Source of the DNA: Malacoraja senta
Lineage: Eukaryota
NCBI GenBank assembly: GCA_038087875.1
Contig: CM075996.1
Span: 1,676,001-1,740,000, forward strand
Length of the DNA stretch: 64,000 bases
Reading direction: 5' to 3'
Positions 16,423 to 45,075 of this stretch are shown piece by piece. A program made the translations under genes and the position numbers. How positions within the stretch are numbered: the stretch's first letter is position 1; each line of letters begins with the position of its first letter. The notes beneath the pieces were generated by a model. That model was given only the letters and a program-made list of their open reading frames with translations, was not told the origin of the DNA and searched no databases.

Positions 16423-16558
16423 TTGGGGGTGGGGAGAGATTGCAACCTTCACGTGGTCCGCCCTATGTCGACTAATGCAATCAACCTTGGCGTGGACAAT
16501 CAAATGCGATCAAGTTGTCCTACAACTTTAGGCTGTACAGCAAGAAGAAGAAGCAGAA
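16423..16558 (+). mobile_element. Second copy of the HDV-ribozyme-headed short retroelement, antisense in the LRRC4B 3' UTR
   Basis: Same P1/P2/P3/L3/J4-2 (16426-16482), shared caagttgtcctacaactttaggctgt and gaa tail. TSD gggcagggag at 16413-16422 and 16559-16568. The G after P1' is changed to A (16465). Confidence 0.75.
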
Positions 16559-16692
16559 GGGCAGGGAGGAGGTCCACACACCCTCCCCCCCCCATAGTAC
16601 GTGTCCCCCTTCTCCTCCTCCCCAATAGGCAACCCTCCCAGCCCAGCCCAGCCCAGCCCTCTCCACCGCCCCCCGCCCCCCTCCACCGGTCC

Positions 16693-40800: not shown

Positions 40801-43749
40801 TTTCCGATTGGGGAAGGGAGGATTGCTACAATTGCACCATATTGATGTGTAGCGCTCAATGTTTTGTGCAGTGCATCTCGTTGTTGTCAATCCATACGGT
40901 GATTGAAGAGTCGCCATCCCTCCCCCCTCCCCTCCCCCCTCCCCCCACTTTGTTGGGAAACTGTAAACATCTACCAGAGAGGTGGTGCTTTGGGGAGCCT
41001 TTCTTGTCGGAGGTCGATGAGAAAACACGATCTGGGTGGTCCGTGAGAAATACAGCAAAATGCAACAAAGATCGCCCGGAGATGAACTGCCGCTGTTTGG
41101 AGAAATGAGGAAAAAGCACAAAATTCCTGATTCTGGTTTCCATGTTTTTCCTCATCTCAGTCCTAAATGGATTTCCCCTTATTCCTAAACTGTGAACCCT
41201 GGTTCTGGACTCCCCCAACATCGGAAACATTTATCCTGCCTCCAGCCTGTCCAATCCCTTAAGCTCTAGGAACAAAATGGCGGGACTGTCATATGCTGAG
41301 AGAATGGAGCGGCTGGGCTTGTACACTCTGGAGTTTAGAAGGATGAGAGGGGATCTCATTGAAACATATAAGATTGTTAAGGGCTTGGACACGCTAGAGG
41401 CAGGAAACATGTTCCCGATGTTGGGGGGAGTCCAGAACCAGGGGCCACAGTTTAAGAATAAGGTGTAAGCCATTTAGAACCTGGACGAGGAAACACTTTT
41501 TCCCAGAGATGCTGCCTGACCCGCTGAGTTACTCCAGCACTCTGTGAAAAGTCACCTATCCATGTTCTCCACAGATGCTGCCTGACCCGCTGAGTTACTC
41601 CAGCACTCTCTGAAACGTCACCTATCCATGTGGAATTCTCTGCCTCAGAGGGCGGTGGAGGCAGGTTCTTTGGATGCTTTCAAGAGAGAGCTAGATAGGG
41701 CTCTTAGAAATAGCGGAGTCAGGGGATATGGGGAGAAGGCAGGAACGGGGTACTGATTGGGGATGATCAGCCATGATCACATTGAATGGCGGTGCTGGCT
41801 CGAAGGGCCGAATGGCCTACTCCTGCACCTATTGTCTATTGTCTAAAATTGGTCCATTTGGCCCATCAAGTCTACACCGCCAGCATGGAACCCGGGTCTC
41901 CGGCGCTGTAAGGCAGCAACTCCACTGTGAGGCCTCTAATATATAACACACATCATAAATTAACCACTACACACACTGCCGTTGTCTGGTCAAATTAACC
42001 CGTTGTTTGGGAGAAGTTCCTCTAGCTTCTATCATAAATTCTGTTTCTCCCATTCATTTTTTGGAGTAAATTGGTTTTGTTTGTTGTATTAATTGCCCTC
42101 TAAGTTCATACGTTCATGTCAAAGGGACAGAATTACGCCATTCAGCCCATCAAGTCCACTCCGCCATTCAATCATGGCTGATCTATCTCACCCTCCTAAC
42201 CCCATTCTCCTGCCTCCTCCCCAAATCCCCTGTCACCCGTACTAATCAAGAATCTGTCAATCTTCGCCTTAAAAATACCCATTGACTTGGCCTCCACAGC
42301 CGTCTGTGGCAGAGAATTCCACAGATTCACCGCCCTCTGACTAAAGAAACATCATGATGAACAAGTACATCAGTCTGAAGAAGGGTCTCGACCCGAAGCC
42401 ACACCCATTCCTTCTCTCCACAGATGCTGCCTGACCCGCTGAGTTACTCCAGCACTCTGTGAAACGTCACCTATCCATGTTCTCCACAGATGCTGCCTGA
42501 CCCGCTGAGTTACTCCAGCACTCTGTGAAACGTCACCTATCCATGTTCCGGCAGCATCTATGGAGCGAAGGAAATAGGCAACGTTTCGGCCCGAAACCCT
42601 TCCGGGTTTCGGCCCGAAACGTTGCCTATTTCCTTCAGGATTTCGGCCCGAAAGGTTGCCCATTTCCTTCGCTCCACAGATGCTGCCTGACCCGCTGAGT
42701 TACTCCAGCACTTTGTGAAACGTCACCTATCCATGTTCTCCACAGATGCTGCCTGACCCGCTGAGTTACTCCAGCATTTTTGTCTACCTTCGATTTTACA
42801 GCATCTGCAGTTCCTTCTTAAACACCATAATGAACCAGTTGGGTCTTGGTGACAATCCAACAAATTTCATAGAAATTATTTTTTCCATTTATTTGTGAAT
42901 TGCCAAATTTATTGAATTCAGTTCTCACGTTTTGACAGGGTGGTATTCAGAAACATAAGTTCCAAACCCACTGAGTTAACATCACCCCATTAATAACAAT
43001 CCTGTTCAAAAAATCTTCCTCGTGGGAGAAATCCCCCACTGATTTATCCAATTAGTTTGGCAATAATTGCTTTCTATTAGGGACCTGATGTTATGGCTTC
43101 AAATGTGGATCTAACATTCCTCTTTGTGGAGATATTACCCTGTTGATTTTAAATTAGTTGATGTCTTCATTAACACAGCAAGGGAAAAGAAAGAGAGACT
43201 TGGACTCAAATATTACCATACGCATCCTTTTCCCAAATGTTTCACAGAAAATTAAGTTCAGTTCCATCACTGATTTTCCAGCAAGAGGTCCTATGATCTG
43301 GGCGAAATTACGAGAACGCAGTTGAAATCCCCTTCCCCCTGAAGACCCCGTGAAAATGTGGCGCCTCGGCCGGGAGAGGCAGCCGATCTCGACCTCGCGA
43401 TCTAAACTCATGCAATCAGCCCATGGGTTTATGCTCGATCTGTGGGCTGAGGCTCAGATGGTTGCATCTGTACACTTGATTCTAAAATCCTCCAGTGACT
43501 TCAGGATACAATCTCGGCTGGCCTCCAGTGTTGGGGGAGTGATGAAGTGTCAGAGTTGGCATTTGTCAATGCCAAGATTCAGATCCTATCTGCTAGGCGT
43601 AAAGAGTCCATTGACAATATTTTGAAGATGAGGACAGTTCTCCTGGCTGTGCTTACCCCTTGAGTATACAACAGCAGGAGGCCGTGATTGCTGCTTTGGG
43701 ACTTCATTGTTGTACTTCCTAAGGACAGTAGGCTTTGAAATTTATGGAA

Positions 43750-43954
43750 AGTGCTGGAGTAACTCAGCGGGTCAGGCAGCATCTGTGGAGAACATGGATA
43801 GGTGACGTTTCACAGAGTGCTGGAGTAACTCAGCGGGTCAGGCAGCATCTCTGGAGAACATGGGTAGGTGACGTTTCACAGAGTGCTGGAGTAACTCAGC
43901 GGGTCAGGCAGCATCTCTGGAGAACATGGGTAGGTGACGTTTCACAGAGTGCTG
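43750..43954. repeat. 66-bp tandem array of the PLE terminal sequence (also ~41505-41630 and ~42420-42780 in the opposite orientation)
   Basis: cacagagtgctgg recurs at 43811, 43877 and 43943. Confidence 0.9.
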
Positions 43955-44008
43955 GGGGTGGAAGATTGCAACCTTCACGTGGTCCGCCCTGTTTCGACTA
44001 ATGCAATC
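43955..44008 (+). ncRNA. Minimal HDV-like self-cleaving ribozyme (predicted)
   Basis: P1 GGGGUGG/CCGCCCU (G1-U wobble), P2 GAUUGCA/UGCAAUC, P3 ACC/GGU, L3 UUCACGU, G after P1', minimal P4 (U-UUCG-A), J4/2 C-UAA. Confidence 0.75.
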
Positions 44009-44102
44009 AACTCGACGTGCACAAACGGAAGATCAAATAGAACAAGTTGTCCTACAACTTTAGGCTGTGCACGCCACACGAAAGAAGAAGAAGAAGAAGA
44101 AG
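43955..44102 (+). mobile_element. Short non-autonomous retroelement with a 5' HDV-like ribozyme and (GAA)n tail (probably Vingi/Ingi-derived)
   Basis: TSD acagagtgctg at 43944-43954 and 44103-44113. 3' end is gccacacgaaa(gaa)n. A second copy lies at 16426. Confidence 0.8.
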
Positions 44103-45075
44103 ACAGAGTGCTGGAGTAACTCAACAGGTCAGGCAGCATCTCTGGACAAAAGGGATGGGTGACATTTTGGGTCAGAACCCTTCTTCACACTGCAGTTGGT
44201 GCTTTGGGGACCGCACTCAAATATCATCTGCTCCCTCTGTAGTCATTCAATAGACAATAGGTGCAGGAGTAGGCCATTCGGCCCTTCGAGCCAGCACCAC
44301 CATTCAATGTGATCATGGCTGATCATCAACAATCTTTTGGCATTGTTGTTGAATATTCCGAGGTACACGACCTATCGTGAATAAAATGGACAGAGCGCAC
44401 ATGGAGATAGATGACCAAGATCAATCAAAGGGGGGAGCTTGAAAGGGGCATTTCTGCAAATGCATCTTTTCACATCTGCCCATTGTCACCATGTACCAAT
44501 CACCTGTCCTCCCCTTTATCCACCGATCACTTGCCTGGCTTTGAACTGCAACCCCCCTCCCCCTCCTCCCCAGCTTTCTTCCCTCCACTCTACAATCAGT
44601 CTGAAGAAAGGTCCCAACCTGAAACGTCACCTGTCCATTCTCGACCATATGCGACCTGACTTGGGCACATTGAGCAGCACGGTGGCGCAGCGTTAGACAA
44701 TAGACAATAGGTTCAGGAGCAGGCCATTCGGCCCTTTGAGCCAGCACTGCCATTCAATGCGATCATGGCTGATCATCCCCAATCAGTACCCTTAGAGTTG
44801 CTGCCTCACAGCGCCAGAGACCCGGGTTCGTTCCTGACTACGGGTGCTGTCTGTACGGAGTTTGTACGTTCTCCCCGTGACCTGCGTGGGTTTTCTCTGG
44901 GTGCTCCGGTTTCCTCCCACACTCCAAAGACGTGCAGGTTTGTCGGTTAATCAGCTATCTCAGAAAGGCAGCCAGCATTGTCAGAGACCCACACCACCCT
45001 GGCCACGCTCTCATCTCGCTGCTAACATCGGGAAGAAGGTACAGGAGCCTGAAAACTGTGACCTCCAGGTTCAGG

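Follow-up and report, generated by a model that had tools for sequence, protein, structure and literature searches.

A non-autonomous, probably promoterless retroelement of Malacoraja senta with a predicted minimal HDV-like ribozyme at its head

Results

The window analysed here, a stretch of 64,000 nucleotides of Malacoraja senta DNA, contains a 148-bp insert which is a non-autonomous and probably promoterless non-LTR retroelement of a family whose members measure ~135-150 nt. Judged from its letters, the head of the insert belongs to the minimal HDV-like ribozymes, here met in a setting that is new for them. The P4-less HDV-like form, reported almost only from phages, is thereby placed at the head of an animal retroelement with ~10,000 copies.

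Anatomy of the insert

The insert ends in seven AAG units and lies between exact duplications of its target site (Table 1). A sequence-only reading that preceded this work had given the helix coordinates, an 11-bp duplication and a GAA/AAG tail, and direct inspection of the letters confirmed all of these. The same reading described P4 as reduced to a UUCG loop; the short loop is indeed there, but what replaces P4 is just a loop of 5-6 nt, as in minimal HDV-like ribozymes, and not a real P4. The body tolerates deletions, and insertions consisting of the ribozyme only stop near 44016-20. When pseudoknots were set aside, the predicted fold of the element was no better than that of shuffled sequences (fold z-score 0.23, not significant alone). 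Arrays of one 66-bp repeat unit occur at positions 41503-41631, 42415-42548 and 43750-43955 of the window, and the element sits in one of them.

Table 1. Features of the insert and its surroundings, in window coordinates.
Feature	Position	Strand	Remark
66-bp tandem repeat	43750..43954	.	host DNA hosting the insertion, outside the element; repeat reading
5' target-site duplication	43944..43954	+	11 bp, 12 if G43955 is counted; exact match to 44103-44113
Minimal (P4-less) HDV-like ribozyme	43955..44008	+	predicted cut 43954/43955; fold, phage alignment, cross-family pairs
P1 5' strand	43955..43961	+	G43955 = G1 = 5' end of the element
P2 5' strand	43964..43970	+	the head of one resident RTE family has these 7 letters ahead of P3
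P3 (ACC/GGU) and L3 (UUCACGU)	43971..43983	+	direct reading of letters
P1 3' strand	43984..43990	+	43986 is G or A among subfamilies, either pairs with U5
P1.1 G43991, short loop replacing P4, putative catalytic C43998, J4/2	43991..44001	+	
J4/2 position	43999	+	U, G or A among subfamilies
P2 3' strand	44002..44008	+	direct reading of letters
Body	44009..44075	+	stem 44016-23/44066-73 around hairpin 44044-49/44055-60
Terminal motif ACACGA	44076..44081	+	also present at the 3' terminus of the young Vingi-type LINE
(AAG)7 tail	44082..44102	+	direct reading of letters
3' target-site duplication	44103..44113	+	exact copy of 43944-43954
Second, older family copy	16426..16559	+	80% identical; A in place of P1.1 G

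The fold of the head and its support

The 54-nt head reads as a nested double pseudoknot with P1, P2, P3 and P1.1 in the order of HDV-like ribozymes. P1 (43955-61/43984-90) begins with a G1.U wobble, J1/2 is 2 nt long and P2 (43964-70/44002-08) is Watson-Crick paired at 7/7 positions. P1.1 has the single G43991, and C43998 is followed by UAA, so that the G1 wobble and the J4/2 cytosine with its adenines are likewise those of an HDV-like ribozyme. The register of these helices is that of the Rfam CPEB3 consensus and of the head of a Vingi-type LINE described below.

Across eight heads in the same register (the element, the Vingi-type LINE, three other families, one RTE and two phages; rows picked by hand), 10 of the 11 pairs of P1, P3 and P1.1 showed double-sided changes, a number that none of 500 shuffles reached. 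These changes, with the phage comparison below, support the predicted fold as something beyond a chance pattern. Rfam gave no gathering-level match anywhere in the window; on the head itself, the HDV-F-prausnitzii model matched weakly at 16 bits (E 0.92). A comparison with the CPEB3 model found no match at E<=10, and the element thus falls outside RF00622 with its 35-bit threshold.

Among 137 distinct copies, a pattern-selected and biased sample, 4 of the 54 ribozyme positions varied by more than 10%, whereas in the body of the same copies, 74 nt long, ~11 sites did so. The four are nt 8 (J1/2), nt 32 (G/A opposite U5), nt 42 (loop) and nt 45 (J4/2), all of them structure-neutral; G1.U, C22-G37, C44 and the J4/2 adenines are kept among subfamilies though their neighbours change. 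C44 was retained in 118 of 124 covered copies, whose selection had in part made use of this region, and in 55 of 59 copies chosen by position. Two of these four positions are CpG sites, and the covariation of P1, P2 and P3 within the family that the sequence-only reading had looked to did not appear, the 137 copies showing one-sided or unpaired changes and no compensatory ones. For these two reasons, the sequences lend moderate support to selection on the ribozyme fold within the family.

Likeness to the minimal ribozymes of phages

The core pattern of the element matched 48 viral contigs, in 18 of which a tRNA or tmRNA ended no more than ~2 nt from the predicted G1. A strict automatic test for P1 and P2 was passed by seven of the 48; many others carry a P2 offset that the script disallowed. 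The head aligned without gaps to phage tRNA-processing ribozymes, with the letters of P3/L3 and of the loop and J4/2 common to both, and U38, U39, U40, A43 and U45, which the pattern had left free, were shared in at least 90% of the 19 aligned rows. P1 covaries among the phage ribozymes. It is this gap-free match, together with the shared free loop letters, that leads us to class the head as a minimal HDV-like ribozyme. A model built from ten phage or metagenome ribozymes scored the head at 49.7 bits (E ~1.5e-8), a value that is partly circular because the ten training ribozymes had been found with the element's own core pattern.

The theta ribozymes of gut phages cleave in vitro in a Mg2+-dependent manner, and cleavage is abolished by C-to-U; nearly 99% of minimal ribozymes lie in phages, and the accessible text of the same source reports none from human, mouse or protist genomes (PMC10879173). 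Like them, the head lacks P4, has a short loop and a short J1/2, carries the consensus letters including those of P3/L3, and has a predicted cut site that bounds the upstream RNA. Theirs, however, processes an upstream tRNA and often sits at a tRNA 3' end, whereas that of the element heads an animal retroelement without tRNA. Convergence would more likely account for the loss of P4 than transfer between phage and animal. Since UUCACGU is present in theta ribozymes, and in an RTE head as well, this loop alone does not point to CPEB3, of which it had been taken as a signature.

Two groups of phage motifs (L169, L172, L176, L177 and L183 with ~10 alike; L162, L164, L166, L170, L171, L181, L187 and L207) carry this P3/L3 core away from any tRNA, one group having no nearby P1 strand and the other no canonical P2. 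In a further viral contig (L182:1038-1541), a minimal ribozyme abuts the 3' end of a phage tmRNA instead of a tRNA.

Copies, 5' ends and class of the element family

A search with a 22-nt core, allowing up to two mismatches, returned 9,706 matches (4846+4860) in the 1.94-Gb genome and 0 in the control, which puts the family at ~9,700 copies. The 40 candidates with the best scores out of 1,412, the youngest subfamily, are 98-100% identical. Words sampled from the element were present at 73-100% in sequencing runs filed under ten organism labels, one of them a metagenome, from 15 studies.

All of the 30 best copies begin at the G1 position, one with an altered first base, and their flanks are unrelated save at duplicated loci. 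A sample chosen by position, namely the 60 exact matches to the core that come first on contig C1, was counted by eye; one row (L372), given on the wrong strand, was left out, and the 59 informative copies gave 47 starts at G1, eight at G2, two that were ambiguous and two at nt 5-7; deeper truncations are invisible in this sample, which requires nt 10-31. Upstream sequence was unrelated among the 59 except in two duplicated pairs, a normal body and tail followed in 56, and none continued into a long element. Contigs of other sequencing runs, too, have loose ends that pile up at G1 (34 in X1, 87 in X4) and differ in the sequence that flanks them, and tandem heads (joint 1568->1501) were seen in runs X4 and X9.

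Target-site duplications were detectable around 87 of 116 distinct heads and ranged from 8 to 15 bp, with a mode of 11-13 bp. They end at G1 in 42 cases, 1-2 nt inside the element in 18 and 1-5 nt before G1 in 27. Of 97 heads, 56 have T, 19 G, 12 C and 10 A just ahead of GGGG, with no excess of G at -1. Capped RNA would give such an excess. Duplication ends and the spread of bases at -1 suggest that the 5' boundaries fit run-off of reverse transcriptase from a fixed, uncapped RNA end. The proposal that copies start at the ribozyme's G1, with unrelated DNA upstream, is thus borne out by the C1 copies, the best copies and the duplications alike.

Dispersed copies, duplications of variable length, a simple-repeat tail and the absence of an ORF are those of a non-autonomous non-LTR element. 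A search for tRNA was negative and no exact B box occurs in the element, in keeping with the earlier view of a non-autonomous retroelement without a tRNA head; a classical SINE, with a tRNA, 7SL or 5S head and polymerase III boxes, it is not. At the 3' end, the youngest subfamily reads ACACGAAAG and older subfamilies read ATACGCAAG.

Ribozyme-only insertions and a second short family

Five loci (L093, L095, L097, L099 and L102) were found by script to carry a 13-15 bp duplication around just 66-92 nt, in which the ribozyme is followed by ~10 nt from the body and by short repeats of slippage type; four more candidates (L092, L094, L098 and L103) were picked out by eye. The duplications indicate that the ribozyme can be inserted alone. 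These loci were drawn from 20 chosen for odd downstream sequence among 51 exclusion-pattern matches, and such insertions are rare, given that none was present in the 59-copy C1 sample.

Among lower-scoring matches to the CPEB3 model, 12 (L415, L416 and L423-L432) belong to a second short family of ~190 nt, which is P4-less with a P3 of the CPEB3/Vingi type and has a similar terminus and AAG tail where its end is in view; most of the 12 copies lack G1. Older families (L409, L413 and L433-L436) scored 45-60 bits with this model. In two of these loci, L434 and L436, the resemblance to the CPEB3 consensus extends through P4, and the copies are older and degenerate.

A Vingi-type LINE as the likely partner

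One copy of a young LINE (L417:59-3195; C1:217550498-217553634) is 3.13 kb long and is flanked by a 12-bp duplication. Its one ORF encodes endonuclease and RT domains and, at the C-terminus, a CCHC motif, but no RNase H; in this copy, a stop lies near the end of the ORF. Other members are found at L405-L408, L410, L411 and L414, and the start codon lies ~25 nt past the ribozyme. A compact single ORF with endonuclease and RT and without RNase H is what defines the Vingi clade (PMC13708176), and by eye the 5' end of this copy closely resembles the printed 5' end of Vingi-2_Gav. We accordingly call the LINE Vingi-type, by its architecture and head resemblance and not by a tree. Homologues of its protein (46-63% identity, ~990 aa) are found in lancelet, sea urchin, insects and anole, as compared with only 28% identity to an RTE protein. 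No such protein turned up when prokaryote and viral contigs were scanned.

The 3' ends of this LINE were nearly identical in six of six fetched copies, five of which end ACACGAAAAGAA. With this end the element shares only ~8 nt plus the tail. Exact-pattern and top-match searches found no autonomous LINE that shares the element's 5' end. Three 5' exclusion patterns gave 30, 51 and 4 matches, of which 30, 20 and 4 were inspected as loci, all of them element variants. Three 3' patterns gave 176, 42 and 19 matches (30, 0 and 18 read as loci) and likewise yielded element variants only; matches beyond those loci were judged among the matches listed, which leave out 76 of the 176. An autonomous partner sharing both ends, as had been envisaged, was thus not found in these searches, the Vingi-type LINE having in common the terminal motif and tail only.

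The two agree in age, in the length of their duplications and in their terminal motif and tail. Since the stretch they share is so short, we regard it as likely, and at most likely, that the Vingi-type LINE mobilises the element. To this extent, the idea of mobilisation by a Vingi/Ingi-like LINE has gained a candidate: a young LINE of that type with the same motif, tail and duplication length.

RTE-clade LINEs

Using DUF6451 and a metagenome RTE protein, we traced three resident RTE families with AAG, AAGT and GAT tails (L142, L144, L145, L148, L151 and L375). Their 5' ends are predicted to form C-start HDV-like P1, P3 and P1.1 with a weak P2. They have the same layout as the element: a GA(T/C)TG-like stretch precedes ACC-UU, and the pairs of P1 and P1.1 are flipped and covary. 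P3 and the P2 5' strand of the element resemble these heads, unlike the Vingi head. The metagenome RTE (L244) is intact, encodes 1053 aa and has a G-type HDV-like head with a long J1/2 and P3/L3 identical to those of the element. RTE is the less likely present partner: sampled copies are 84-96% alike, broken and without the terminal motif. An element copy upstream of an RTE fragment (L403), considered as an RTE head, proved to be a separate insertion.

Proposed mechanism and alternatives

We hold it reasonably probable that this is a self-cleaving, promoterless element which is mobilised by Vingi and whose head came from an unsampled Vingi/Ingi or RTE head after loss of P4, not from the present Vingi. 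We infer self-cleavage before G1 and release from host transcripts. Read-through from host DNA would transcribe a copy, the nested double pseudoknot would cut just 5' of G1 with C44 as general acid, and the product would be a compact 5'-OH RNA retaining the whole ribozyme. Acting in trans, the Vingi protein would then recognise the 3' motif together with the tail; target-primed reverse transcription would insert the RNA, the enzyme running off at G1, often with an untemplated base or microhomology. Occasional priming just behind the ribozyme would give the solitary 66-92 nt ribozymes between duplications.

The same self-cleaving element might have both its origin and its mobiliser in an RTE-clade LINE, given the three resident families with heads of its layout, one of them with an AAG tail, the matching P3/L3 of the G-type metagenome head and a CCTACA...TAGG stretch in its body that by eye resembles one RTE 3' end; bipartite non-autonomous LINEs are, moreover, known to have arisen from RTE (PMC5786205). 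We nevertheless consider this doubtful: the broken RTE copies are older than the 98-100% element subfamily, their 3' ends are without the ACACG/ATACG motif, and in none of 32 RTE-containing loci was the element's head joined to the LINE.

Two further explanations concern the fold itself. The kept G1.U, C22-G37, C44 and J4/2 adenines amid changing neighbours and the close match to active phage minimal ribozymes make it unlikely that the fold is a non-cleaving relic or a protein-binding or stabilising cap whose 5' end stems from an internal promoter or a reverse-transcription stop. There is precedent for a promoter, as the first 77 nt of L1Tc (Pr77) are promoter and ribozyme at once (PMC3185411), and the second P4-less family has spread though most of its 12 copies lack G1; the element itself, on the other hand, shows no G excess at -1, no tRNA and no exact B box. 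The Rfam E value of just 0.92 could be read as a pseudoknot arising by chance in an ordinary short repeat, an explanation which is close to refuted by a register identical to that of the CPEB3 consensus and the Vingi head, by pairs that covary across families and by the coincidence of G1 with the insertion boundary.

A possible origin of the mammalian CPEB3 ribozyme

The printed 5' end of crocodilian Vingi-2_Gav (Supplementary Fig. S1 in the supplement of PMC5786205) reads by eye as a G-start HDV-like fold, and 14 of 15 letters of a mouse Cpeb3 ribozyme primer (PMC10919898) match it, again by eye. Because of this likeness, the Rfam CPEB3 model RF00622 was run on the genome. Out of 102,231 candidates 59 were scored; 39 of these matched at 35 bits or more, the best at 64.2, and at this cut-off there was no match in 14 control genomes. 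Eight of 12 fetched matches are 5' ends of one family, set in differing flanks, and in seven of the eight the sequence leads on to the same ORF start. By model score (64.2 bits), the first 73 nt of the young Vingi-type LINE are predicted to be a CPEB3-class, P4-containing ribozyme, and this head falls within RF00622 (at least 35 bits). The suggestion of a CPEB3-like ribozyme thus fails for the element itself and holds for the head of the LINE. With the mammalian CPEB3 ribozyme, the element has in common the helix register, L3, a single C-G P1.1 followed by U and a C-N-A-A junction; it differs in its ACC/GGU P3, in having no P4 and in the lack of a model match.

On this basis we consider it distinctly probable that the CPEB3 ribozyme of mammals arose by exaptation of a Vingi 5' end, left by a ribozyme-only or short non-autonomous insertion in an intron, that Vingi heads are a general animal source of CPEB3-class ribozymes, and that short parasites have repeatedly shed P4, reaching a theta-like fold. 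What may be the stages of this course are found together in one genome: a LINE that is young and begins with a CPEB3-class head, two short families without P4, and ribozymes inserted on their own. The lead on CPEB3 rests on the head of the Vingi partner, not on the element. An ancient mammalian Vingi insertion is plausible, since the human genome retains a Vingi trace, X12_LINE (PMC5753468). It has even been proposed that the HDV ribozyme stems from the CPEB3 ribozyme (10.1101/2022.09.22.508989). No link between Vingi and CPEB3 was found in the searchable literature, which covered few subscription papers. Both the 5' end of Vingi-2_Gav and the body of alligator SINE2-1_AMi (PMC5786205, Fig. 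S1) read as CPEB3-like ribozymes; the main text of that paper is silent on CPEB3.

Relation to known elements

Short non-autonomous non-LTR elements with an HDV-like ribozyme at +1 are known as NARTc, RIME and SIDER in trypanosomatids and as R2 SIDEs in Drosophila (PMC3185411, PMC4035085 and PMC6765202). Because these are already known, the element is a variant of ribozyme-headed non-autonomous retroelements, being likewise short, non-autonomous and with its ribozyme at +1; tandem heads, as in SIDER2, also occur in its family (X4 and X9). Their heads, however, are P4-bearing in those accounts and near-identical to that of their own LINE, whereas the element is P4-less, has a head that matches none of the resident LINEs found, measures less than 150 nt and reaches ~10,000 copies in an animal genome. 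Bipartite derivatives of Vingi, Ingi, RTE and R2 have also been described, the vertebrate cases being Vingi-1_EE derivatives and RTE-N1/N2_Lch (PMC5786205); like these, the element has no RNA-gene head and would combine a LINE-type 5' end with a LINE-type 3' terminus. Neither this family nor a minimal ribozyme on a eukaryotic retroelement was found described in the searchable literature, with few subscription papers covered. Short elements with such heads may have been described before, in lamprey, lancelet or sea urchin.

The element suggests the smallest known promoterless SINE design, a 54-nt ribozyme with a short LINE-recognition tail, and its thousands of copies could cut host transcripts that read through them in sense. 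The Vingi head and the solitary insertions would offer a concrete, testable origin for the mammals' intronic CPEB3 ribozyme, so far treated as an orphan. As Vingi elements are in development for gene insertion (PMC13708176), the design of templates may also draw on a 5' UTR predicted to cleave itself and on a template of 140 nt that is probably mobilised in trans by nature.

Other HDV-like ribozymes encountered

A metagenome scan of 82 loci returned many P4-containing heads, one RTE and no Vingi. Multi-copy P4-containing HDV-like ribozymes (L209, L212, L214, L215, L218, L221 and L224-L227, with ~25 alike) lie on AT-rich, eukaryote-like contigs and have a conserved G-rich stretch upstream and no RT ORF nearby. 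On a 1.3-kb contig with repeated ends, a type III hammerhead (L243:680-737) lies on the strand opposite to an HDV-like ribozyme, an arrangement that resembles an ambisense circular RNA.
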